A model generated the notes under the pieces. That model was not told where the DNA came from and ran no database searches. It saw nothing but the letters and a program-made list of their open reading frames with translations. A stretch of 64,000 bases of DNA from an uncultured Gemmatimonadaceae bacterium (GTDB taxonomy: Bacteria > Gemmatimonadota > Gemmatimonadetes > Gemmatimonadales > Gemmatimonadaceae), in NCBI GenBank assembly GCA_963781585.1, contig CAWAGQ010000008.1, forward strand, positions 32,001 through 96,000, written 5' to 3'. Positions 48,201 to 61,540 of this stretch are shown here, piece after piece (positions within the stretch are counted from its first letter, which is position 1; each line of letters begins with the position of its first letter). The position numbers and the translations under genes are program-made.

Positions 48201-48235
48201 TTTACTAGTCAGTTGTATATGACTATAATGGTCAC
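48201..48235 (+). promoter_or_regulatory. TA promoter and operator
   Basis: TTTACT-N17-TATAAT; IR TAGTCA-N8-TGACTA at 48206-48225. Confidence 0.65.
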
Positions 48236-48526
48236 ATGAAGAAGGCGTCCGTCTCCGAACTCAAGGCGCGGCTCAGCGCGTACCTCGACGTCGTGCGCCG
48301 CGGAGACGAAGTGCTCGTGACCGACCGCGGCCGGCCCATCGCCCGCCTCGCTCCGGTCAGTGGCGTCTCCCACGCCACGGGCCGCCGCGAATTGCTCGTC
48401 CGGAGCGGGCAGCTCAAACCGCCCACCGCTCCCCTGCCACGCGACTTCTGGAAGCGTCCCCGCGCGAAGGACCCGAAGGGCCGATCGTTGGCGCTGCTGC
48501 TCGGTGAACGGGAAGAAGGCTGGTGA
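48236..48526 (+). CDS. Phd/YefM antitoxin
   Basis: SVSELKARLSAYL...VLVTDRGRPIARL. Confidence 0.92.
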   Translation: MKKASVSELKARLSAYLDVVRRGDEVLVTDRGRPIARLAPVSGVSHATGRRELLVRSGQLKPPTAPLPRDFWKRPRAKDPKGRSLALLLGEREEGW

Positions 48527-48939
48527 GGTTCTGGGATTCATCGGCGCTCGTACCGCTCGTGCTCGAACAGCCCCTGTCCGCGCGCGCGCGCGCCTTCCAC
48601 GACGAGGATCCCGAACTGGTCGTCTGGTGGGGCTCAGTCGTCGAGTGTGCCTCGGCCATCAGCCGGCTGCACCGCGATGGCGGGTTGACCGACGGCCAGG
48701 AGGAGGCGGCGCGATCGCTTCTCGCGACGCTCCGAAGCAGCTGGTTCGAGATCCAGGCGGGAGACGCGGTGCGGGAGCAGGCCCTCCGGCTTCTTCGCCT
48801 GCATCCCCTACGCGCGGCGGATTCGTTGCAGCTGGCGGCCGGCGTGGAATGGGCCGGCTCGCCGCCAGTGGGCGACTTCGTGTCGTTCGACAATCGCCTC
48901 CGCGCCGCCGCGCAACGGGAGGGATTCCGCGCGCCGTGA
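48523..48939 (+). CDS. vapC: VapC PIN toxin
   Basis: FWDSSALV, LRAADSLQLA and FVSFD. Confidence 0.9.
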   Translation: MRFWDSSALVPLVLEQPLSARARAFHDEDPELVVWWGSVVECASAISRLHRDGGLTDGQEEAARSLLATLRSSWFEIQAGDAVREQALRLLRLHPLRAADSLQLAAGVEWAGSPPVGDFVSFDNRLRAAAQREGFRAP

Positions 48940-49023
48940 GAACCGGGCCGTGTCCTCGCCGGCGCTCTTTCCCTCACTCGCCCCGCCGCCACTTTCCCGG
49001 CGTCTCCCGCATCGATCCGGCCA

Positions 49024-50655
49024 TTGGGCGAAACGCGCGTTGACCTGTTCCACCTGCTCGAGGATCTCGCCGGTGCGTATCCCGGCGAGCTGGGAGACAC
49101 CATCCTCACGGAGATCGTCGCCAACGCGCTCGACTCGGGCGCGTCGACCATCGCTGTTTCGGCCGACACCGCGAACTCCACGCTCACGGTGGTCGACAAT
49201 GGAGCCGGCATGCGCCGAGCGGAGCTGCGCCGGTTCCACGACATCGCCGCGACCACGAAGGAGCGCGGCCAGGGCATAGGCTTCGCAGGCGTCGGAATCA
49301 AGCTCGGACTGCTCGTAAGCGACGAGGTGGTGACCGAAACCGGGCGCGGCAAGGATCACGCCTGTACCACGTGGGCGTTCGCCAACCGGAAGCGCGCCCT
49401 CTGGCAGTGGGTTCCCCCAAGGGACCTGGTGACCGGCACGGGTACCGCCGTGCAGTTGCGCCTCCAGAATCCGCTTTCTCCCCTGCTCGACGGAGCGCTT
49501 CTCGAGGCACGCCTTGCCCGCCACTTCGAGCCGCTGTTCGATTCGTTCTTCGACGAGGTGCTCCGCGGCCAGTATCCGAAGGGCGTCCGCTTCACGGTCA
49601 ACGGCCGGACGCTCGAACGACGCACCGGGCCGGTCGGCGAGATGGCGCGGGTGGCGGTCCACCTCGCCCGGAAACGCAAGCCGGCGGCCACGGGCTATCT
49701 CGTCAGGCACGCCATGCGCCTTGCCGACGATCAGCGCGGCGTCGCGATCAGCACCTTCGGCAAGGTGATCAAGCGCGGCTGGGACTGGCTCGGCCTCAGT
49801 CCCGCGAATCCGGAATTCGTGAACGGCCTCGTCGAAGCACCGGCGCTTGCGATGAGCCTCACGCTGAACAAGGCGGACTTTCTGCGAACGGGTCCGCGCG
49901 GCGCCGTCTATCTCGCGTATCGCAAGGCCATGCAGGAGGCGCTCGCGCAGCAGCTCGCGGCGTGGGGCAACGCGCACAACGCGCACGAACGCACGCGGCG
50001 CCGCGCGGCCCGCCCGGTGGAGCGCGACGTCGAAACCGTCCTGCTCGATCTGGCCGACGCGTTTCCCATGATCGCGATGCTCGTGGAACGCCGGAGCGGA
50101 GGACAGCGAAAGCTGCTGATGGGCCGCGGCGATGGCACCGGCGCGCCGCAACCCATGCTGCTGCCGCCGGAGACAGCGGAAGGCGCGCCGATCGTCGCGC
50201 CCCCGGAAGAAGCGCCCGAAGCCGAGTCGCCCGCCGCCGGCGAGGCGGCGCCTGACGAGCGGGACGCGGAGCCGGAGCTGCCGAGCACACGGGCGGAGCC
50301 TCCGGGCAGCCCCGACCTGCCCGGCACCGCGCCGCTCCAGCTGCCGCAGCGGAAAGGCCGGCGCCGGCCGACACGACTCGGCCTAACGATTCAGTTCGAG
50401 TCCCGCCCTGACGATCCGGAGATCGGGCGCCTTGTGGAGACGACCGTGTGGGTGAATGACGCGCACCCCGCCTACGTGCGCGCCGCCGCATCGCGCGCGG
50501 AGTCGTATCACCTGGCGCTTTCGGTGGCCATGGCGCTGGCGCGGGTGGCGGTCGAGCCCGCGCAGGAACATGAATTCGTCTCCGCATTTCTCGGACGGTG
50601 GGGCGAAGCCGCCGTGGGTGCGCGCACGGCGAGGCGGCGGACACGGAAGGGATGA
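49024..50655 (+). CDS. GHKL (Hsp90/MutL/MORC-like) ATPase of unknown function
   Basis: EIVANALD, DNGAGM, GFAGVG and GTAV motifs; Pro/Glu-rich linker before the C-terminal domain. Confidence 0.8.
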   Translation: MGETRVDLFHLLEDLAGAYPGELGDTILTEIVANALDSGASTIAVSADTANSTLTVVDNGAGMRRAELRRFHDIAATTKERGQGIGFAGVGIKLGLLVSDEVVTETGRGKDHACTTWAFANRKRALWQWVPPRDLVTGTGTAVQLRLQNPLSPLLDGALLEARLARHFEPLFDSFFDEVLRGQYPKGVRFTVNGRTLERRTGPVGEMARVAVHLARKRKPAATGYLVRHAMRLADDQRGVAISTFGKVIKRGWDWLGLSPANPEFVNGLVEAPALAMSLTLNKADFLRTGPRGAVYLAYRKAMQEALAQQLAAWGNAHNAHERTRRRAARPVERDVETVLLDLADAFPMIAMLVERRSGGQRKLLMGRGDGTGAPQPMLLPPETAEGAPIVAPPEEAPEAESPAAGEAAPDERDAEPELPSTRAEPPGSPDLPGTAPLQLPQRKGRRRPTRLGLTIQFESRPDDPEIGRLVETTVWVNDAHPAYVRAAASRAESYHLALSVAMALARVAVEPAQEHEFVSAFLGRWGEAAVGARTARRRTRKG

Positions 50656-50825
50656 CTCCGGACGGAGGTTGTACCGTTGACGCCCTGGCGTGCTTCCCTG
50701 GACGTCATGGCTTGAGTCCGACCGATGCCCACCCTCGACACCGACTGGCGGCTTCGCCTCGCAATGCGGAGCATCCGAACCGCGAGTTCCTCGCCGAGCG
50801 CTTCGAGCGGTTCCGGGCCGCGTAG
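50652..50825 (+). pseudogene. Possible 3' remnant of an HNH restriction-endonuclease-like gene
   Basis: TPD...HGL...PRNAEHPNREFLAERFERFRAA* resembles the C-termini of such proteins; recognised from memory only. Confidence 0.35.
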
Positions 50826-52116
50826 AGTCCGGTCCGTACGTCGCTTGGGCAGGGAATCCGGCCGCACGGTGCTTGTGCGGGCAGGACTTCTTAGTTAAAC
50901 TTAGGCCGTATTCTTTAATAGTGCCGCACGCTATTCAAACCGACTTGAATAAGCGCCAAGCCACCGCATGAAGCGGGCTCAGTCGGGGCGATACGAGATC
51001 ACCTCGGCCGGCGGTGAGCGCGTGCGCGCGTTCGTGCCGGATCCCCTTCCTCCACGGCCGCCGCTCGCTCTCACTGGCCGGTTGCAGCAATCGCTCGAGG
51101 CCGCAGTCCTGGCCACTGGCCGTCTCGATGGGGTCTCCACGTTGCTGCCCGATAGGTCACTCTTCCTTTACACCTACGTGCGAAAGGAGGCAGTGCTCTC
51201 ATCACAGATTGAAGGGACGCAGTCGTCTCTGTCCGACCTGCTGCTCTTCGAGCTTGACGAAGCTCCTGGTGTGCCCGTGGACGATGTCGCGGAAGTATCC
51301 AACTACGTGGCGGCGCTGGATCACGGGCTCGCCCGCATGCGTGGTGGATTCCCGCTGACCAATCGGCTGATCCGTGAAATCCACGGCGTGCTGTTGTCCC
51401 GTGGGCGCGGGGCCGGCAGGGCTCCCGGTGCATTTCGACGGTCGCAGAACTGGATCGGAGGCACGCGCCCCGGCAACGCCGCATTCGTGCCCCCGCCGGC
51501 GCACGCCGTGCAGGATTGCATGTCCGCGCTCGAGCGTTTTCTCCATGCCACCGACGACGGCCTGCCGCTGCTCGTACGAGCCGGACTTGCGCACGTTCAG
51601 TTCGAGACGATTCATCCGTTTCTTGACGGCAACGGACGGGTAGGCCGCTTGCTTGTCACACTGCTTCTGGTGCATGCCGGCATGCTTCACGAGCCACTGC
51701 TCTATCCCAGCCTGTACCTCAAGCAACACCGGAATGCGTATTACGATTTGCTCACGCGGGTCAGAGAGAAGGGAGACTGGGAAGCCTGGCTGTCCTTCTT
51801 TCTCGTCGGGGTCACGGAGACGGCGGAAAGCGCGGCCATGACCGCGAACCGTTTGACGCAGCTGTTCAGTGAAGACCGCGCAAGGATCGAGACGTTGCGT
51901 ATTTCGCCACATCTCGTTCACCGATTTCGCTCCAAGCCGTTCACCCATTTCGGTCCAAGCCGTTCAGTCGTTTCGCTCCAAGCCGTTCGCTCATTTCGGC
52001 CCATGCCGGTCACCCGTGCCGGTCCAAGGCGATCGGGCGTGATGCGATGAGTTGAGGGCCGCGGGATCCCGTCCACTGCCAGCGATCCTTCCGGGAACTC
52101 TTTCCGGAGCGACGCC

Positions 52117-53778
52117 GTGGCAGCTGTGAGGGTATCCATGCGGAAGGTCCTTGACGTCGTGCGGCTCCGCTTCGAGGCGGGCCGCAGCCAGCATGAGATC
52201 GGGCTCGCCCTGGGGCTGGCGCAGAGCACCGTCGGCGAGTACCTGCGCCGCTTTCAGGCGAGCGGGCTCGCGTGGCCGCTCGCCGCGGACCTCGACGAGG
52301 CGGTGCTCGAGGCGCGGCTCTTTGCTCGTCCCGCTGCGCCGGCGGCCGAGGCGAGACCGCTCCCCGACTGGCCGACTGTTCACCGCGAGCTCCGGCGCAA
52401 GGGGGTGACGCTCCAGCTCCTGTGGCACGAGTACAAACAGGGCGAAGCGGACGGCGCGGCGTGCTATCAGTACACTCAGTTCTGCCGCCACTACCACGCG
52501 TGGGCCGCCCAGCTCGATCCGGTGCTCCGGCAGCAGCACACAGCGGGCGAGCGCACCTTCGTGGACTATGCGGGCCAGACCATCGACGTCGTCGACACGA
52601 CGACGGGCGAGGTCCGCGCGGCGCAGCTCTTCCTCGGCGTGCTCGGCGCAAGCAACTACTTCTTCGCGGAGGCAACGTGGACGCAGACGCTGCCGGACTG
52701 GATCGCGTCGCATGTGCGCATGGTCGAGTATTTCGGGGGCGTCAGCGCCTTGATCGTGCCCGACAATTTGCGGAGCGGCGTGACGCACGCCTCGTTCTAC
52801 GAGCCGACCGTCAACGCGACCTATCAAGACTTCGCCACCCATTACGGCACGGCGATTCTACCCACGCGGGCCGCGCGGCCCCGCGACAAGGCGAAAGCGG
52901 AGTCGGGCGTGCTGGTCGCCGAGCGCTGGCTCCTGGCCCCCCTGCGCCATCACACCTTTACGTCGCTCGCGGAGCTCAATGGCGCGATTGCGCAGTTGCG
53001 GGAGGTTGCGAACGACCGGCCGTTCCAGAAGCTCGCCGGCTCGCGCCGCTCGCTCTTCGAGACGCTCGACCAACCGGCGCTCCGCCCGCTGCCCGCCACG
53101 CGCTACGAGCTGGCGGAATGGCGCACGGCGAAGGTGAACATCGATTATCACATCGCGGTCGACGGCCACTTCTATAGTGTGCCGTATGCCCTGGTGCGCG
53201 CGGCGGTCCGTGTCCGCCTCACCGCGTCGATGATCGAGGTGCTGCATGAGGGCAAGCGGGTGGCGACCCATGCGCGGAGCGCGCAGCGCGGGTGCTTCAC
53301 GACCGAGCCCGCGCATCGGCCCAAGTCGCATCAGGCGCACCTCGAGTGGACGCCCTCCCGTCTGGTCCACTGGGGCGCCAGCATTGGCCCGTCGACCGGG
53401 GCGCTCGTGACGAGGATCCTCGAGCGCTGGCCGCATCCCGAGCAGGGGTACCGCGCGTGTCTCGGCCTCTTGTCCCTGCGCAAACGCTACCCCGACGCGC
53501 GGCTGGAAGCCGCGTGTGTCCGCGCGCTCACCACCGGCGCGACGAGTTACAAGTCGGTGAAGTCGATCCTCGCCGCCGGGCTCGATCAGGTCGCCCCGGA
53601 GGAGCCACCACCCCTGCGGCTGCCGGCGACGCACGCCCACATCCGCGGCGCCGACTACTACGCCGACTCCCCGGCTCCGGAGTCCGCGCTGGAACTCCCC
53701 CGGTCGTCTTCGGCCTCCTTGTCCTCCTCCTCCTCCTCCTCCTCCTCCTCCTCTACGTCTGGAGACCGCTCATGCTGA
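52117..53778 (+). CDS. istA: IS21 transposase IstA
   Basis: FVDYAG, VPDNLRSGV and PRDKAKAE (DDE). Confidence 0.95.
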   Translation: MAAVRVSMRKVLDVVRLRFEAGRSQHEIGLALGLAQSTVGEYLRRFQASGLAWPLAADLDEAVLEARLFARPAAPAAEARPLPDWPTVHRELRRKGVTLQLLWHEYKQGEADGAACYQYTQFCRHYHAWAAQLDPVLRQQHTAGERTFVDYAGQTIDVVDTTTGEVRAAQLFLGVLGASNYFFAEATWTQTLPDWIASHVRMVEYFGGVSALIVPDNLRSGVTHASFYEPTVNATYQDFATHYGTAILPTRAARPRDKAKAESGVLVAERWLLAPLRHHTFTSLAELNGAIAQLREVANDRPFQKLAGSRRSLFETLDQPALRPLPATRYELAEWRTAKVNIDYHIAVDGHFYSVPYALVRAAVRVRLTASMIEVLHEGKRVATHARSAQRGCFTTEPAHRPKSHQAHLEWTPSRLVHWGASIGPSTGALVTRILERWPHPEQGYRACLGLLSLRKRYPDARLEAACVRALTTGATSYKSVKSILAAGLDQVAPEEPPPLRLPATHAHIRGADYYADSPAPESALELPRSSSASLSSSSSSSSSSSTSGDRSC

Positions 53779-54590
53779 TGCAACAAACGCTCGACCTCCT
53801 GCACACGCTGCGGCTCCCCGGAATGGCCCAAGCGCTCGAAGAACAGCAGGGTGTGCCGGATCTCGCGAGTCTCGCTTTTGAAGACCGCCTCGCGCTCCTC
53901 CTTGAACGGGAGCGCCTCGGCCGCGACGATCGGCGACTCACGCGGCTGCTCCAGATCGCACGCTTTCGCGAGGCGGCCTGTCTGGAGGACGTGAACTTCC
54001 GCGTGAAGCGCGGCCTCGACCGGAACATCTTCCTCCGGCTCGGTACCGGCGACTGGATCCGGCACCATGACGTGATTCTCATGGTCGGTCCCACTGGAAC
54101 GGGGAAGACCTGGCTGGCCTGTGCGCTCGGCCACAGTGCGTGCCGCCAAGGGCACGTGGTCCGCTACGTCCGTCTGCCGCGACTCCTCAGCGAGCTGGCG
54201 ATTGCGCGCGGTGATGGATCGTACGGACGGCTCCTGCAACAACTCGCCAAGACCGACCTGCTCATCCTGGATGACTGGGGGCTCGCCCCGCTCGGCGATC
54301 GCGAACGCCGCGATCTCCTCGAAGTGATCGAAGATCGATCCGGTCGGCGCTCGACTCTCGTAACCAGCCAAGTGCCCGTGGACCACTGGCACGAACTCGT
54401 CGGCGACGCCACGTTTGGCGACGCCATCCTCGATCGCCTCGTCCATCACGCGCACCGCATCACGCTGACCGGAGGCTCGCTCCGGAAACTCAAACGGCCC
54501 AGGCCGTGTCCCCTACCACCGAATAACCGTGACTCCACCGATCCCGTGTCTCTCCGCTCGTCGCTGAACGCGATCGTCCGAACCCCGTGA
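53772..54590 (+). CDS. istB: IS21 helper ATPase IstB
   Basis: GPTGTGKT, LLILDDWG and AILDRLVH. Confidence 0.95.
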   Translation: MLMQQTLDLLHTLRLPGMAQALEEQQGVPDLASLAFEDRLALLLERERLGRDDRRLTRLLQIARFREAACLEDVNFRVKRGLDRNIFLRLGTGDWIRHHDVILMVGPTGTGKTWLACALGHSACRQGHVVRYVRLPRLLSELAIARGDGSYGRLLQQLAKTDLLILDDWGLAPLGDRERRDLLEVIEDRSGRRSTLVTSQVPVDHWHELVGDATFGDAILDRLVHHAHRITLTGGSLRKLKRPRPCPLPPNNRDSTDPVSLRSSLNAIVRTP

Positions 54591-55130
54591 ACGCTTTGGA
54601 GCGAAACGGCTGACCGGCTTCACGCGAAACGCGTGACCGACTTGAGCGAAATACGAGACGTCAGGACGTCGTGCCGGTTCGGCGCTCAGGGTTCACGATG
54701 CGCTCAAGGCCCGCCCCATACTCTCGATGCCGGAAATCGCCAGACGGACCAGGCTGGGCTTCCCGACCGCCTCTTCGGCAATGGAGCGCCTTGTCTCGTC
54801 AGGCATAGCCCGCGAGCTCACCGGCAGGAGACGAAACCGGTTGTTTGTCTACACGCGCTACCTGGCCGTACTGAATGAAGGAACGGAGCCCATTCTTCCT
54901 TCCGGGACAAGGCGCACATGACGTCAGACGCCGCCCTTTCCACCGGGTTGGCTTCGACGGCCCAACAGGCACATTCATCGGCTGGTAAGCGCGGGAGCGC
55001 GGCTTTCCACACGGCCTCCGCACAGAGCGTCCGCCTAACCATCCGGCGCATGACGTGGCCACGACCGGGTCCCGCCGCCGCACGGCTCCGCTCTGGACGT
55101 GAGGAAAAGCTCGAATCGCCGTGACCCCGA

Positions 55131-55453
55131 CGGTGAGCTACGCGGGGTGTCTCGACAACTGGATGGACACGATGTGGTGGAACGAGCAGTGGATGGGGTG
55201 GCCCACTGGGCCGAAGTCCTCGGTGTGGTCGAACCTTGGCCAAAGCGGACCCGGCCGCCAAGGGATGGTGCTGCCGGTAGTGGGGAGCTCGACACCAACG
55301 TCGATCCGTCGTCAACCATGCAAGCGGTGAACGCGCTGATCAAGGCGAACAAGACGTTCGATCTCCTGGTGGTGCCGGGAGAGGGCTCATGGGGCCGGGC
55401 GGCGCGGGATCACGGCGGCGTACGGGGAGCACGAGCGGTGAGACTATTTTGTG
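55131..55453 (+). pseudogene. Degenerate duplicate of the 3' part of the DPP IV gene (47548-47867)
   Basis: Long near-identical blocks such as TGGTGGAACGAGCAGTGGATGGGGTGGCCCA, with substitutions and indels. Confidence 0.88.
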
Positions 55454-55469
55454 TGGGCCATGGCCACGG

Positions 55470-55522
55470 TTGACCGCGCCCAGTCGACGTGCTAGGTTCC
55501 ATTCTGCTTCCATTATGGAACC
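55470..55522 (+). promoter_or_regulatory. TA promoter and operator
   Basis: TTGACC-N17-TAGGTT; IR GGTTCCAT/ATGGAACC. Confidence 0.6.
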
Positions 55523-55531
55523 CGCCGACCC

Positions 55532-55774
55532 ATGGCTACCCTTACCATCAAGAGCATCCCGGACCCGCTCTATCGCCAGCTCAAGGAACGGGCCGCGGAG
55601 CATCGACGCAGTCTCAACAGCGAGGTCATCGTTTGCCTGGAGCAGGCCGTCGCCGGCAACGTTCCTGATCCTGTCACCACGCTGGCAAAGGCCGACGCCC
55701 TTCGGGCCAAGCTTCGCGTGCCGCGGTTGACCGAGGCTCGGCTCCGGACCGCCAAGTCCGCCGGACGACCGTGA
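55532..55774 (+). CDS. Arc/FitA-like RHH antitoxin
   Basis: MATLTIKSIPDPLYRQLKERAAEHRRSLNSEV. Confidence 0.9.
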   Translation: MATLTIKSIPDPLYRQLKERAAEHRRSLNSEVIVCLEQAVAGNVPDPVTTLAKADALRAKLRVPRLTEARLRTAKSAGRP

Positions 55775-56187
55775 TCGTCGTTGACACCAACGTCATCGCG
55801 TACCTGCTCCTCCCCGGTGATCAGACGGAGGCTGCGCGGGGCGCCCTCGCGCGGGACGCGGCGTGGGCCGCGCCGATCCTCTGGCGCAGTGAGCTCCGCA
55901 ATGTGCTTCGCGGCTACATGCGGCAGCGTCACCTCACCTTGGCGCGGGCGCGCGAGGTGCAGGGCACGGCGGAGGAGCTGATGGTCGGCCGCGAGTTTCA
56001 GGTGGAGAGCCCCGCGGTTCTGGACCTCGCTGCAGCGAGTGGTCTGAGCGCGTACGACTGCGAGTTCGTCGCGCTGGCGCGCGCGCTTGAAGTGCCGCTG
56101 GTTACGTCCGATCGGGATGTCCTGGCGAGCTTTCCCAGGGACACGGTCTCGCTGACGCTCTTCGGGTCCGGTGCGCCGGGCGCCTAA
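55771..56187 (+). CDS. vapC: VapC PIN toxin
   Basis: IVVDTNV, SAYDCEFVALA and LVTSD. Confidence 0.92.
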   Translation: MIVVDTNVIAYLLLPGDQTEAARGALARDAAWAAPILWRSELRNVLRGYMRQRHLTLARAREVQGTAEELMVGREFQVESPAVLDLAAASGLSAYDCEFVALARALEVPLVTSDRDVLASFPRDTVSLTLFGSGAPGA

Positions 56188-56497
56188 CGTTGCTTACTCG
56201 GGGCGGTTTTCGGTCGCGCGGCGTGAGGCGTAGCTCCCATTTGAGCCAGCCCTGGCGGAAGTGCGTGCGTCAATACGCAATGGGCACCGATAAGTTGGCT
56301 GAACGAGCGAAGTGAGGCGGCCGGGCTGTTGGCAACATCGACCATGCGCCTTGGTGATATGCACGGTTGACCAACTGAACGCATGCATCGGACCCTCAAG
56401 CGCGCGATCGCCCCGCCGCCGCCCGGACACGGCACAGTCAGCAGCAGCCGTACCCCGTTGTGCAGCCTACCTTAGGAGTGATGCCGCGCCAGACAAA

Positions 56498-57367
56498 ATG
56501 CTGACACCATTAGAGACTCTCCGACCGACAGCCCGACCTCGACTCATGGATCTCGTTCGCGACGCAGGGATCGACGTCTCGGACTGAGCGCAGTATGAGG
56601 GTGGGATCGCCCGCGCGGCTGCCAACCCGAAGTACTGCTATCAATGGGAGTTTGAGAATCCGGCAAAGATCGTAGTGCTGAGCATCTGGCACGCCCAACT
56701 TCGCCATGCCCATGGTGAGGTCACAATTGAAGACAACCTTCGTGACACGAGTAACTTCTACAAGAACGTGCCGGGGAAATCCCTTTGGAGGAAGCGTGCA
56801 GAGTCGTTTGATCGGGCCGTCGCGACAGCTGCGCAATCGGGCCTTGCGGTGCGCGCAATCATCTGCGACGGCGAAATGCGAGCTAAGTTCGACCTGAAGG
56901 CGCGAGCGTCACACGTCCATGCCAGGATGCTCGACAAGGCACCGTGGGCAGTGGTTAGGTACGAGCGGCAAAACGGTCGCTTCATCCTTCGGCGTGGGGC
57001 ATCGCCGAACCGGCTAAAGGACCAGTTCTCGGTCGATCAGTTTCCGAGCGCGCCGACGGAAACTCGATCTGTTTCAGGTGAAGTATTCGTCCGCTCAGCG
57101 GCTGTCCGAAGCCAAGCGCTGAAACGAGCCAATGGGCGGTGTGAATGGTGCGGGGAATTGGGTTTCGTCACGGACGACGGATCAATCTTCCTGGAGACGC
57201 ACCACGTAGTACCGCTCAGCGAACGAGGATCCGACACGCTCCTTAACGTGGTTGCCCTATGCGCAAATCATCATCGTGAGGCGCACTTGGGCTCGTCGCG
57301 GGTCAGCATCCGCAACCGCCTGCTGCAGTTTCTAAGGCCGCGGGTGCCCAAGCGGGGCACAGTTTGA
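56498..57367 (+). pseudogene. HNH endonuclease with in-frame TGA at 56585-56587
   Basis: MLTPL...GIDVSD*AQYEGG...NPKYCYQW is one frame; C-terminal CEWCG...LETHHVVPL...NVVALCANHHREAH. Confidence 0.8.
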
Positions 57368-57453
57368 GAGCCGTTGCAGCTGCCACACTGGGCGAGTGGC
57401 CGCGGAGGCCGGCGGTCTAACTTAGGACCACACAACCTTCCTCTGGAACTCCG

Positions 57454-58233
57454 ATGCCGGACATGCCATGGCGTGACGCAATCGTTGAGGTGCTGCGCCG
57501 AGAGGGCGCAGCAATGCACTACACTGCGATCGCCGAGCATGTGGTCGCTGATGGACTCAGGAAGGCAGTCGGGGCAACCCCCGCATCAACGGTGAACGCG
57601 GTCATCACCACGTCTTTGAACGCCGAGGGGTCAAAGTCTCCATTTCAGCGAGTTGCCCGTGGCGAGTACGTCCTCGCATCTGCAACCAACATCGCGCCTC
57701 ATTCTGAGGTGGAGGCCGCGGCGCGCGCCGATGCCGAAGATGAGGTAGAAGGACCAGTTCACGCCTTTGGAATGTTCTGGGACAGAGACCGCGTCCGTTG
57801 GACAAATACTCCGTCACTCCTCGGAAGACAGCAGATAGGCGCCGACGCCGTGGAGATGACTGATCAGAGGGGCATCTACTTGCTGTACGACGGGCGTGAG
57901 GTCGTGTACGTAGGAAGAAGCACGGATCGCTCCCTTGGCACTCGGCTCTACGAGCACACCTATGACCGGCTGCGCACTCGTTGGAACCGGTTTTCATGGT
58001 TTGGGCTCTGCCCGGTGGAGGAAGATGGCAGTCTGGCAAGACCTGCAGGGGGCCAGAGCGCCGAGCAGTTTATTGCGGCAATGGAGGCCTTGCTCATCGA
58101 AGCCCTTGAGCCCGCGCAGAATCGCCGCCGAGGCGATGGGTTCACCGCGGTCGAATTCATTCAGGCCGATGACCCAGAACTTCACAAAGCCCAACTCAAG
58201 GCGGCAATTGCCCAACTTCAGTCCAAGCTATAG
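57454..58233 (+). CDS. HARE-HTH plus GIY-YIG nuclease-like protein
   Basis: WRDAIVEVL...MHYTAIAE...GATPASTV winged HTH; GIYLLY...YVGRS...RLYEH and a conserved E. Confidence 0.78.
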   Translation: MPDMPWRDAIVEVLRREGAAMHYTAIAEHVVADGLRKAVGATPASTVNAVITTSLNAEGSKSPFQRVARGEYVLASATNIAPHSEVEAAARADAEDEVEGPVHAFGMFWDRDRVRWTNTPSLLGRQQIGADAVEMTDQRGIYLLYDGREVVYVGRSTDRSLGTRLYEHTYDRLRTRWNRFSWFGLCPVEEDGSLARPAGGQSAEQFIAAMEALLIEALEPAQNRRRGDGFTAVEFIQADDPELHKAQLKAAIAQLQSKL

Positions 58234-58520
58234 CTCTTCCTCTCAAACGAGCAATAACTGCCGACGGCACCTCTTTCGGAAGCGGTCGGCCCGAACTTCT
58301 CCCGCGAAATCCCGAGTCGCCGACTCAGCTCGGCCGTCTTGGCTCCGGCCGCACGCTCCTGCAGGAAAGGATCCCGATGATTTGTTCTTCTGTGAAGCGG
58401 CCCGTGCGCATCGATCCTCCGTCGTGAGGATCGGCAAGAATGACCGGATCAGATTCCCGAGGGTAACGTCAGTACTGGATCCCGTTGCGGCGGATCACTA
58501 GCCCACGTACGATATCTGTT

Positions 58521-58667
58521 GGAGGTGGGTCAACACACCAATTGTCTCTCGTTGCGTTCTCGCAACGTGTGCTCATGACGCCATGCCTTACGCCACGCTC
58601 CATGTTTGCCTGAGTAGTCGACTGGGAGCGCTCGGAAAAGCGAGAATTACCGGTTGACTCCACCTCC
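58521..58667 (+). ncRNA. Retron msr/msd non-coding RNA (predicted)
   Basis: Terminal IRs GGAGGTGGGTCAAC / GTTGACTCCACCTCC; internal hairpins CGTTGCG-TTCT-CGCAACG and CGCTCC...GGAGCG; abuts the RT start. Confidence 0.75.
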
Positions 58668-60285
58668 TCTGCCCACGCGTGCGATTGGCGCCTGCCTTCG
58701 CGCACCCCCAGAGACGTTTCGCGACAACTTCCTTCGGTTGGGTAGTCGACGAGCACTCGCACGTCTGCTCGAGGTTCCGGGTTCCTACCTTATATGGCAC
58801 CTCTACCGCTTCCCGGCTCATCGAAGGTATCGCACGTTCCAGCTTCTCAAGCGAAATGGCAAGCAGCGCACCATTTTCGCGCCCGCTTCCAAGATCCGCA
58901 TTCTCCAGCAGAAGCTGTCGCAGGTTCTGTACGAGGTGTATGTCCCGAATCTCGTGGCGCACGGTTTTGTCCGCGAGCGCAATATTCGAACAAACGCCGA
59001 GTTTCACCGTAATCGCGAATGGGTTCTCCGACTCGATCTTGAGGACTTCTTTCCTGCGATAAACTTCGGAAGAGTACGGGGAATGTTCATGCGCCGGCCG
59101 TACAACCTGCCTGCGCCCGTCGCGACAGTCTTGGCGCAGCTGTGCTGCTTCGAGGGCTCGCTCCCGCAGGGGGCGCCGACATCGCCGATCATTTCCAATA
59201 TGATCTGCTCAAGACTAGATAATGAACTTCGGCGACTTGCAGCAGATCATCGATGTACGGTAACGCGATACGCGGAACACCTCACTAGCTCGACGAACAG
59301 AGCATTTCCGAAGTCTATCGCCTCTCGCGACCTCACACCGAACGGCTTCATAACGTCGAACGGCCCGGGCCTGGTTCACGTAATCGATTCGAATGGGTTC
59401 AGAGTTCACCCGACTAAGTCTCGTCTCCTCTGGAGGCACCAGCGGCAGGATGTTACGGGCGTGGTCATCAACGAGAAAGCTAATGTGCCAAGACGGTTTC
59501 GAGACCAGATCAGGAGCATGCTTCATGCCTGGGAGGACTTTGGGCTGGATGCCGCAGCCGCACAGCACGATCGATATGACAAGAAGCGTCGAACTGGTAC
59601 ACAGAGGCCATCGTATCGACGAGTGCTGGCGGGAAAGCTTGCGCACTTGAGGATGATCAAGGGTCCCGAAGATCCGACCTACCGTCGACTATGGCAGAGA
59701 TACGAGCGTCTGGCTGGCCATCCAACGGTGGACGACGCGATATGGATTCTACGAAGGACCAGAAGCTTCTGGGACAGCGTTCATGCTGAAAGGGACCGGT
59801 CTCGTCACTTGTTTCCATGTGGTTGCAGCCAAGGGCGTGGATGCGTTCCGCCCTCTGGCACCATCTGCGAGATTCCAGGTCGTCGTTAAGCACGCATTGA
59901 ACGAAATCGATCTTGCGTTTGCGATCTCACCCGCGCCGAAGTGTCATTCCCTCCACCGCGACCTACAAACCCTTTGTCAGTCGGTGCGAAGGTGAGAATA
60001 CTCGGGTATCCGGATTGGAATCGCGGCAATAGCATTTTTGACGCGACCGGCGAAATCGTCCTGGTCAGACGGCACTTCGGCGCGCCCTATGCCCTCGTAA
60101 GCGTGTCTACGCGCGCTGGCAACAGTGGCGGACCCGTGCTAGATGAATCGGGCAGAGTCATCGGCGTCGTCAGGACTGGAGAGCGCTGGCATGGTGACGA
60201 GGAAGGGAAAGAGCACGGCATACTGGGGATTACGGCACTGGAGATCGTTAGCGGCGCCGGAGCTGACGGGTCACGCATGCTCTGA
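58654..60285 (+). pseudogene. Retron reverse transcriptase fused to trypsin-like serine protease (type XI-like); YADD altered, two frameshifts
   Basis: NAEFH (region X), LDLEDFFP, LPQGAPTSP, RYAEH and VTG (region Y). Protease motifs GTAF, TCFHVV, IDLA and GNSGGPVL lie in successive frames. Confidence 0.85.
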
Positions 60286-60406
60286 CGTGCTCTCGGGTAA
60301 GTCCAATAACTGCCGTCGGCTAACGGGTGCGTCTTCCATCTGAAGGCATCTGGCGCGTCGGACTCCGCGGTAGATACGTATTCTCTGAGTGACCGGCGCG
60401 CCGGAT

Positions 60407-61540
60407 TCACGGTCGCTCGTCGCCGCGGGCCCGCCCCTCCATCCGCCCAGTCAACATCTCCGGCCAGACCGCCAGCGAATCCCCATTCACCCAGTTCCGC
60501 GCACGAGCCGCCGCGTTGTAGGCCCGCAGGAACGCCGCCGCGTCGCACTCCGTCGCGATGAGACGCGGCCGGCCGTACGCGCGCTCAACGGTCACGGCCA
60601 TCTTCCACCCCACCGTGTACCACGGGCCCTGCACACCGAAGAAGCTCATCCCCGCGGCAGTCACTGAATCGTCAGGCACCGTGGGATCGAGCGCGCGACA
60701 GCAGAACTTCGTCAGCTCCGACACATCGGCGTTGAAGTGGCTCACGTCCCGGTCCCAGCGCGCCCGCGTGGCGCTGTCGCTCTGTGCATGCGGATGCACG
60801 TCGGGCCCGCCGGCGGCAGCAAGCATCGCGAGCCCCTCGCCCAACGCGCTCGCCCAGTTCCGGGCGCGCGCCACCGGCGCCGGCACGCCACTGGCGCCCG
60901 CCGCACCGCATGCCGCCGAGAGCCCGATGTGGTGCAGCTCGTGCGCGACGGTGTTGTCCGGTTCCGCCCGCGACTTCGCCGGATCCACGTACAGCATGAT
61001 CACGCGCCGACCCGCGAAGTCGAAGACGAAGCTGTTCGTCTGCGGCTTGATCGCCAGAAACACCGTTGTCTGGAGCGGCGTGCCCGCCGGCAGATACGCC
61101 AGCGCCCGCCGCGCCGCGGCCGAGACGTCAAGCGCGCGCCAGGCGGCGAGGGTCCGGTCGAGCGCCGCCCACCGCGCAACAAGGGTGTCCGAGAGCAGAA
61201 ACGCACGGAACGATGAGTCGGCGAACGCCCGGCCCATCACTGCCTGACGTTGCTGGAGCGCGCGAAAGCCGAGGCTCCCGAACAAGCGCGCCCAGTCGCC
61301 CGTGGTAGGGTCGCGCCCGTCATGACGCGCCCGCACGATCGCGAGCGCCGCGTCCGCCTCGTCGGTCACGAACACGAGGCCGCCCGCCTGCCCGGCGCGG
61401 ACGACCGGGATGCCGGGCGCCCGCACGCTCACAGTGGCCGGACCGGGCACGCGCGAAGATCGGACCGCGCGCCACGGCGGTGACACGGCCCCTGACACGA
61501 GGACGCCAGACGACAGCAGAACAGGCAACACGACCCGCAT
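60407..61540 (-). CDS. Putative secreted Zn-dependent protease (DUF5700-like); start uncertain
   Basis: AHELHH, EGLA and GPWYTVGW. Confidence 0.7.
   Translation of the reverse strand: MRVVLPVLLSSGVLVSGAVSPPWRAVRSSRVPGPATVSVRAPGIPVVRAGQAGGLVFVTDEADAALAIVRARHDGRDPTTGDWARLFGSLGFRALQQRQAVMGRAFADSSFRAFLLSDTLVARWAALDRTLAAWRALDVSAAARRALAYLPAGTPLQTTVFLAIKPQTNSFVFDFAGRRVIMLYVDPAKSRAEPDNTVAHELHHIGLSAACGAAGASGVPAPVARARNWASALGEGLAMLAAAGGPDVHPHAQSDSATRARWDRDVSHFNADVSELTKFCCRALDPTVPDDSVTAAGMSFFGVQGPWYTVGWKMAVTVERAYGRPRLIATECDAAAFLRAYNAAARARNWVNGDSLAVWPEMLTGRMEGRARGDERP

Follow-up and report, generated by a model that had tools for sequence, protein, structure and literature searches.

Positions 58518-60285 on the forward strand of the window analysed here, i.e. 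the whole stretch of 64,000 nucleotides (nt) from contig CAWAGQ010000008.1 of an uncultured Gemmatimonadaceae bacterium, hold a type XI retron: a retron reverse transcriptase (RT) of clade 8, an assignment taken from the PADLOC class names, fused to an HtrA-like protease of the trypsin fold and preceded by an RNA of the msr/msd type. Retrons of this kind are already known as anti-phage elements and little studied, and the present copy is a decayed new member. The locus as a whole is very likely what is left of a type XI cassette, self-contained and about 2 kb long, that has now been inactivated. As currently read, the RT and the protease do not form one open reading frame (ORF), the residues of the protease triad being present and split over two frames, as detailed in the following rows.

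58654..59889, forward strand: RT ORF as now read, 411 amino acids (aa), with a TTG start at 58654, an out-of-frame tail from 59752 and a TAA stop at 59887-59889
59753..59955, forward strand: N-terminal half of the protease, in the +1 frame, with the catalytic His at 59816-18 (TCFH) and the catalytic Asp at 59909-11 (IDLA)
59783..59995, forward strand: second ORF, in the frame next to the RT frame
59941..60285, forward strand: third ORF, in the RT frame
59966..60285, forward strand: C-terminal half of the protease, in the RT frame, with the catalytic Ser at 60124-26 (GNSGGP) and the stop at 60283-60285

The first-pass annotation, made from the sequence alone, had described a type XI-like retron with an RT-serine protease fusion, and this description is supported by several lines of comparison. 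With Pfam, the first ORF matches RVT_1 (1.3e-12) and the third matches the C-terminal half of Trypsin_2 (3.8e-10). The PADLOC model RT-Protease_XI, a class that PADLOC labels 'single gene', is matched by all three pieces (2.8e-117, 2.4e-05 and 1.3e-15) in successive parts of the profile. For the RT part, the top three PADLOC classes are near-equal (RT-TIR_XII with 396.6 bits, RT-Protease_XI with 390.8 and RT-Toprim_I-C with 345.8), whereas the two downstream pieces match only XI models, at profile positions 354-400 and 419-502 of about 506-510. The retron-specific NAxxH and VTG motifs noticed in the first-pass annotation are indeed present, as NAEFH at 58993-59007 and VTG at 59452-59460, and so are the motifs of the protease triad, TCFH at 59807-59818 and IDLA at 59906-59917, both in the next frame, and GNSGGP at 60118-60135 in the RT frame. 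No second copy of the retron was detected in the genome, which gives weak protease-only matches at most (E=1e-5 to 7e-4).

A protein search in which 8000 candidates were scored returned 2870 relatives at E<=0.001. The top relative, P0001, is a truncated ORF with 97% identity encoded by a sister contig described below, and the next-nearest ones, P0002-P0005, are RT-protease proteins of 479-553 aa with 53-67% identity, the starts of P0003 and P0004 falling inside the RT when compared with P0002. Intact P0002 matches RT-Protease_XI with 502 bits over positions 2-497 of 506, compared to 401 bits for the XII model; NCBIfam holds no model for the RT-protease class. In all of 31 RT-protease homologues, the NAxxH motif, the Asp of LDL.DFF, QGAP.SP, the ADD of YADD, VTG and the His, Asp and Ser of the protease are invariant. 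Close homologues thus keep the fused protease, and they keep the upstream RNA as well, both being features whose absence the first-pass annotation had named as a reason to abandon its proposal. A phylogenetic placement of the RT, also proposed there, leads to the same conclusion: in a quick maximum-likelihood tree of 121 RT domains (328 columns, LG+G4, SH-aLRT support only), the window and P0001 (support 100) fall inside a clade of seven supported at 99%, whose other five members are protease fusions. A cyclase clade is nested within a protease clade in this tree.

Structural comparisons point in the same direction. With a profile of the 31 homologues, the best solved sequence is that of retron Ec67/Eco2 (E=1.9e-92), and proteases of the HtrA/DegP/MarP type are found at about 1e-15 for the C-terminal domain. 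When the AlphaFold model of P0002 (mean pLDDT 89.8, pTM 0.72) was submitted to Foldseek, cryo-electron microscopy chains of Eco2 came out best (E=2.8e-28, 33% identity over about 339 columns), and MarP, DegQ, DegP and DegS matched the protease part.

The locus resembles type XI retrons in its retron RT with NAxxH and VTG, its C-terminal trypsin-fold domain with a His/Asp/Ser triad and its lack of an accessory gene, and it differs from them in that the present copy is broken, with YADD lost and the protease out of frame. Its RT domain is about equally similar to that of type XII (RT-TIR; NCBIfam NF042941, 'TIR domain-containing anti-phage reverse transcriptase'), in which the C-terminal domain is a TIR domain instead of a protease. 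The closest solved RT, that of Eco2/Ec67 (type I-C, RT-Toprim; PDB 9i2f, 9lm3 and 9s1f; PMC12916289), belongs to the same RT clade and is likewise part of a single-protein fusion of RT and effector, whereas a tRNA-cutting Toprim RNase serves as its effector. Finally, the protease shares its fold and catalytic triad with the HtrA/DegP/DegS/MarP family (S1C) but, unlike HtrA/DegP, has neither signal peptide nor membrane anchor nor PDZ domain, the latter being absent by Pfam from the pieces in the window and from 22 Trypsin_2-positive relatives scanned.

Among relatives, the same RT chassis is joined to a variety of C-terminal domains. Among 96 ORFs scanned, the C-terminal domain was Trypsin_2 in 22, TIR in three, the caspase domain Peptidase_C14 in one (L059), EAD1 in one (L089) and pP_pnuc_1 in two (L094 and L106); guanylate-cyclase-type, Mrr_cat, DUF4435 and DUF4062 domains occur in further relatives from the protein search. 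Full-length RT-protease genes with 33-37% identity to P0002 are also found on three plasmid records (NZ_CP013139.1, NZ_CP044087.1 and NZ_CP035512.1) from cultured Pseudoalteromonas, Pseudomonas luteola and Haematobacter, where they are annotated merely as 'reverse transcriptase domain-containing protein'.

The RNA upstream of the reverse transcriptase

A structured non-coding RNA (ncRNA) directly upstream of the RT, as claimed in the first-pass annotation, is recovered both by folding and by comparison with relatives. Positions 58515-58675 fold at -59.7 kcal/mol (z=-3.12), and only one of 200 shuffled sequences folds as well. R1, a covariance model built from 17 other RT-protease loci with the window excluded, has a single match on the two strands of the 64-kb window, at 58518-58669 (21.5 bits, E=0.0016), which spans model positions 1-168 of 168. 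A permissive Rfam scan of 57800-60600 identified no family, its lone match being a chance one to a long non-coding RNA (E=7.9). The parts of the RNA are the following, all on the forward strand.

58518..58669, forward strand: retron ncRNA of the msr/msd type, apparently intact, delimited by the R1 match
58521..58534, forward strand: a1 arm (GGAGGTGG followed by GTCAAC), pairing with 58653-58667 in 8 + 6 base pairs (bp), with T58659 bulged
58541-58544, forward strand: conserved AUUG motif just 5' of the msr hairpin, from the R1 alignment
58550..58567, forward strand: conserved msr hairpin, with a 7-bp stem (58550-58556/58561-58567) and the loop UUCU
58585..58592, forward strand: conserved GCCUUACG motif ahead of the variable hairpin, from the family alignments
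58597..58630, forward strand: variable hairpin, presumed to be the msd stem, from the minimum free energy structure; its sequence and length vary among relatives
58636..58647, forward strand: conserved AAAAGCGAGAAU motif just before a2 (family consensus AAGC.AGAAU), which may double as the ribosome-binding site of the RT
58653..58667, forward strand: a2 arm, within which the TTG that starts the RT (58654) is located

The same architecture is found in relatives. Genome and metagenome scans provided 21 RT-protease loci, 20 of which have upstream sequence. In most of these 20, the longest inverted repeat has its a1 arm at about -120 to -170 and its a2 arm ending near the RT start, with a span of 143-182 nt; the end of a2 lies at -6 to +37 nt of the estimated RT start in 19 of the 20 and at -27 in the remaining one. 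The sequences of the arms vary between loci. With position and span fixed, a longest a1/a2 stem of at least 12 bp was present in 14 of the 21 RT-protease loci, the window included, whereas the same measure taken 700 nt inside the coding region reached this length in none of 21, and segment-swap shuffles did so in 13 of 420. In the same line, the median pairing of an a1 with its own a2 is 13.5 bp long but only 8 bp with the a2 of other loci, and at least 10 bp are reached in 59 of 70 own pairings compared to 774 of 4830 swapped ones. A MAFFT/RNAalifold consensus gave just the 7-bp hairpin, because the arm sequences are too divergent to be aligned in register, hence the use of tests made locus by locus. 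The msr hairpin itself shows compensatory changes in six of its seven pairs (4 to 27 sequences per pair among 69 relatives), folds of 68 out of 70 family members have z < -2, and the conserved single-stranded motifs of the family are AUUG, GCYUUA and AAGC.AGAAU.

R1 matches 69 of 100 related loci, 17 of these 69 being its training set, always on the strand of the RT and, where coordinates were compared, directly upstream of it. Besides protease fusions, these loci include an RT-Toprim_I-C (L007), an RT-TIR (L017), a fusion of RT and pPIWI-associated nuclease (L094) and many RTs with C-terminal domains that Pfam does not recognise. When cultured isolates were searched with filters off, R1 gave weak, non-significant matches just upstream of two distant gammaproteobacterial type XI genes (E=0.052 and 0.34) and none at a Proteus Ec67-family locus or at an E. 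coli RT-TIR locus. The R1 family therefore does not extend across all of clade 8 at the present sensitivity.

Published descriptions of type XI differ with regard to such an RNA. In the available part of Mestre et al., type XI has no recognisable ncRNA, in contrast to the conserved a1/a2 RNA of the present locus and its relatives, whereas the available part of Khan et al. (10.1101/2024.01.25.577267) counts type XI among the retrons with ncRNAs validated by RT-DNA production. RT lineages of Bacteroidota and Bacillota that are accompanied by separate WYL or DnaB_C genes form a related RT clade and also have candidate a1/a2 RNAs upstream of the RT, but, unlike the locus, they have no protease; the portion seen of the paper on these lineages contains no covariance model for canonical type XI. 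Such a model of the RNA family was not found in print for canonical type XI, and the R1 RNA may correspond to the already modelled type I-C family.

Lesions in the fused gene

The state of the gene was evaluated against homologues and against the sister contig mentioned above (G001:C33; 11,615 nt), which is binned in a genome of the same genus and aligns to positions 49272-60880 of the window with 98.6% identity. Three sites of damage are distinguished.

59266..59304, forward strand: destroyed RT active site, RYAEH (59266-80) in place of RYADD, from comparison with the sister contig and homologues
59751..59751, forward strand: first frameshift, due to an additional A that the sister contig lacks; it lies between ...AIWIL (RT frame) and EGPEASG... 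(next frame), before the protease domain
59916..59965, forward strand: second lesion cluster, with -T at 59916, -GG at 59927, +C at 59956, T>A at 59961 and +A at 59965 relative to the sister contig

The two frameshifts reported in the first-pass annotation hold as a net effect but arise from five indels (+A 59751, -T 59916, -GG 59927, +C 59956 and +A 59965), which shift the frame by +1, -3 and +2 and bring the reading back to the RT frame. What that annotation overlooked is the loss of the catalytic YADD, which reads YAEH at 59269-59280 whereas the sister contig and all 31 homologues have YADD, D209 and D210 being invariant in 31/31. The loss results from a patch of 28 nt (59277-59304) that differs from the sister contig by five substitutions, all of them transversions, and by deletions of 1 nt and 2 nt, thereby turning RYADDITISS... 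into RYAEHLTSS... By contrast, no break was seen in the 43 further ORFs of the window that were scanned, all of them long; Pfam matches were obtained for 33, many of which span nearly the whole profile. Within the window, the damage is specific to the retron gene.

At every lesion site of the window, the state of the sister contig agrees with that of the homologues. From 59751 to the stop, the sister contig reads as a single frame collinear with the homologues, which indicates that RT and protease were once fused in one gene. The RNA region is identical in both, without any difference between 58326 and 58969, and the flanking repeats described below are likewise unchanged. The lesions quite probably reflect real decay. 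This decay appears to be recent, since the intact state is retained at each lesion site in a contig that is otherwise nearly identical. As judged from its sequence, the retron of this genome should be unable to operate, its sole long product being a 411-aa RT without the catalytic aspartates and with an out-of-frame tail. In retrons, loss of the multicopy single-stranded DNA (msDNA) normally unleashes the effector; the protease would therefore have been disabled before the RT or together with it. Programmed frameshifting or a functional split gene was also considered and is ruled out, as 31 of 31 homologues are single-frame and the RT active site is destroyed as well. No gene-conversion donor for the two scrambled patches was found elsewhere in the genome, where chance matches of 13-18 nt are the most that occurs.

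The ratio of indels to substitutions in the sister contig is 39:116, compared to 44:1729 in another stretch of its genome, and its indels break the HNH, HARE-HTH, DUF5700 and ATPase genes, all four of which are intact in the window. It is probably a low-coverage contig of a close strain that was mis-binned, or a region recently transferred. Retron DNA was detected in two of 41 genomes searched, in addition to one 53-nt match. Divergence along the alignment is also a mosaic, with 0-3 substitutions per kb at 49-54 kb, 30-55 at 55-57 kb (a pair of RHH and PIN genes and their spacer) and 1-7 at 57-59 kb; this mosaic may reflect mis-binning of the contig or a recent exchange of the region.

Flanking repeats and neighbouring genes

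The retron lies in an islet of low guanine-cytosine (GC) content, which drops from 0.65-0.73 to 0.56-0.60 over about 56500-60400, and is bracketed by a direct repeat. Its surroundings within the islet are as follows.

58252..58268, forward strand: left copy of the 17-nt direct repeat CAATAACTGCCGACGGC, starting 19 nt past the HARE-HTH stop
60304..60320, forward strand: right copy of the 17-nt direct repeat, with one mismatch (94% identity between the copies), starting 19 nt past the retron stop
56675..57367: HNH gene, in the low-GC islet, matching PADLOC mREase_IV (type IV methyl-directed restriction) at 1.9e-16
57454..58233: HARE-HTH gene, 259 aa, in the low-GC islet

At up to two mismatches, the 17-nt repeat occurs only at these two places in the 5.7-Mb genome, and such a bracketing repeat, unique in the genome, suggests that the cassette of 2.05 kb was inserted as a unit. 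Flanking direct repeats of at least 12 nt were found at five of 53 related loci, compared to 24 of 2756 swapped controls. Besides repeats of 20 nt at L058 and 18 nt at L054, a particular case is provided by L094 (190-2410), where the fusion of RT and pPIWI-associated nuclease and its R1-type RNA have a tRNA-Arg gene on one side and, on the other, 48 nt that repeat the 3' half of this tRNA. This arrangement looks like attachment-site (att) flanks around a cassette of about 2.1 kb, with no room for an ORF of integrase size beside the RT gene. An empty site, i.e. the HNH and HARE-HTH genes without the retron, was not found in the relatives among 61 genomes searched; in these genomes, the DNA of the two genes is confined to the present genome and the sister contig, apart from two matches of 39-48 nt.

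The first-pass annotation had regarded the retron as a single-protein system, and the surroundings of related loci agree with this. Among 55 flanking ORFs at 14 RT-protease loci (hand-picked from 94 listed, nested and short overlapping ones being excluded), no recurring family was detected, most of them being unrelated housekeeping genes. The absence of a recurring neighbour fits with a small self-contained cassette. In the window, the next gene downstream of the retron is a DUF5700 gene of high GC content on the opposite strand.

The suggestion of a defence-like island is only weakly supported, since the HNH gene matches a PADLOC model whereas no other neighbouring gene does. The HARE-HTH protein has no match in PADLOC, in NCBIfam or among PDB sequences, and its C-terminal half looks GIY-YIG-like when inspected by eye. 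Upstream of the retron lie a FitA-like RHH and PIN pair of the VapBC type (55496-56187), an insertion sequence (IS)-like element with Mu-transposase C-terminal and rve domains (about 51900-54660, ORF 52051..53778) and, at 48209-50652, a Phd/YefM-like antitoxin with a 143-aa partner and a GHKL (HATPase_c_3) protein of 571 aa. The RHH/PIN, IS-like, GHKL, Phd-like and HARE-HTH genes match no PADLOC model. The copy of the IS-like element in the sister contig is 100% identical over 2763 nt to contig C6 of the present genome, which points to a second copy there.

Proposed mechanism, competing explanations and significance

In the intact fusion, a helical linker would connect the retron RT with a serine protease of the HtrA/DegP type devoid of PDZ domain, and the msr/msd RNA with its a1/a2 arms would be promoter-proximal. 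Given the overlap of a2 with the start codon, this RNA would share a transcript with the RT message. The RT would bind the conserved msr hairpin, prime from an RNA 2'-OH and copy the msd part into msDNA. The parts needed for transcription, priming and copying appear to be present, in view of the sequence anatomy and of the relatives. The scaffold of msDNA and RNA would then hold the RT-protease, probably as an oligomer, with its protease inactive. Cutting, modification or binding of the msDNA by a phage function would free the protease, which would cleave cell or phage proteins and thereby stop the infection. Solved HtrA-family proteases are regulated oligomers, and the RT with its nucleic acid may have taken over the regulatory role that is otherwise of the PDZ type.

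Caging of the protease by msDNA, its release by the phage and protease-mediated abortive infection are proposed here by analogy with Eco2. According to the available part of the Eco2 report (PMC12916289), an Eco2 trimer on branched msDNA cages the Toprim domains, and a phage nuclease degrades the msDNA and frees them. The msDNA-caged trimer and the DenB trigger are thus demonstrated for Eco2 alone; according to the same report, the mechanism is documented for no other RT-effector fusion, and type XI is considered plausibly alike. Searches of the literature found in print no experiment on anti-phage defence by type XI, nor on an msDNA-restrained protease or abortive infection.

Several observations weigh against a decayed, once self-contained retron as the explanation for the locus. 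For the window's type XI subfamily, msDNA, protease activity and phage defence are predicted by analogy. The contiguous a1/a2 stem of the window is of 9 bp where the shuffles reach a maximum of 10, i.e. no better than chance, and no sigma-70-like promoter was detected upstream of the RNA, two such sites being found inside the gene, a count at the level of shuffled sequences. The sister contig, for its part, has many indels: 24 bases are extra and 18 are missing, spread across all genes of its 11.6 kb. Three of its deletion events (59641, 59715-16 and 59741) lie inside the retron gene, the one at 59641 being the reason why P0001 ends at 332 aa, and neither assembly contains a wholly intact copy. 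Moreover, ten other 20-kb stretches of the genome to which the sister contig was assigned are only 85.5-93.3% identical to the present genome. Finally, the lesions rest on one assembly, a search for public sequencing runs covering 58450-60350 having returned none, and they are oddly clustered, with five transversions and two deletions in 28 nt and four indels in 50 nt; at a background divergence of about 0.4%, such clustering resembles a faulty consensus or one complex event more than it does gradual decay.

These last features also speak for another reading, in which the organism itself has an intact gene and the YADD patch, like the indels, reflects local assembly or polishing faults or a mosaic consensus of co-existing strain variants. 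Besides the single assembly and the tight clustering of differences rich in indels and transversions, this explanation is favoured by the near-identical contig having the 'good' state at each lesion and by an assembly of 17 contigs with 7.19% contamination, so that mixed strains are possible. It is nevertheless unlikely: the 43 other ORFs scanned in the 64-kb window are unbroken, wherever the two low-GC genes just upstream of the retron differ by an indel, it is the other contig and never the window that is broken, and at least seven indel events fall within one gene of 1.6 kb and hit its active site, which does not resemble random error. With regard to the intact members, one may also consider that the protease is not the killing effector but the activator of an unlinked pro-effector, as in trypsin-MBL (metallo-beta-lactamase) or nuclease-protease modules, or that it processes the fusion itself. 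Indeed, as described in the available parts of three reports (PMC12799240, 10.1101/2025.11.14.688446 and 10.1101/2025.09.03.673762), trypsin-like proteases of many defence systems cleave a neighbouring pro-effector. However, when 55 flanking ORFs were scanned at 14 loci, neither an MBL nor a nuclease nor another recurring gene was found beside the RT-protease gene, and no adjacent pro-effector gene is present in the window, where the retron is followed by the DUF5700 gene on the opposite strand; the PADLOC class is a single-gene one, and the retron in the parts seen of the trypsin-module papers is St85-like (type II) rather than type XI. Either role is thus improbable. As for an RT of the group II intron, diversity-generating retroelement (DGR) or UG/Abi type with an unrelated structure upstream, a generic RVT_1 match is all that speaks in its favour, whereas all 25 PADLOC matches listed for the RT ORF are retron RT classes. 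With NCBIfam, P0002 scores 54 bits for the group II maturase (cut-off 300), 26 for Drt2 and 23 for Drt3a, compared to 339 for Retron_TIR and 306 for retron_Ec67. Foldseek ranks 1-17 are occupied by retron RTs only, Rfam gives no match to an intron or another family, the RT has both NAxxH and VTG, and an a1/a2 RNA is shared by the relatives; this possibility is consequently rejected, with next to no likelihood left to it.

The inactivated type XI retron could, tentatively, be placed in a broader picture, in which one conserved msr/msd RNA family outside Rfam serves a radiation of RT-effector fusions (with protease, Toprim, TIR, pPIWI-associated nuclease and Pfam-unrecognised domains), a single RT-RNA chassis swapping its effectors and travelling as a cassette of about 2 kb between short direct repeats. 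This proposal is rather doubtful at that stage; if true, the window would show such an effector-swapping cassette just after both of its enzymatic domains were knocked out, with the RNA untouched.

By itself, the copy described here is of little importance, since it is inactivated and its retron type is already catalogued; what is added is limited to the RNA model and the flanking repeats. R1, derived from RT-protease loci, gives a concrete RNA for type XI, which has been described as having no recognisable ncRNA or covariance model. In addition, the model of P0002, with its Eco2-like RT and HtrA-like protease, suggests a testable 'msDNA-caged protease'. Finally, as one assembly has the locus broken and the other has most of it intact, a natural example of the loss of a self-toxic defence gene would be at hand.

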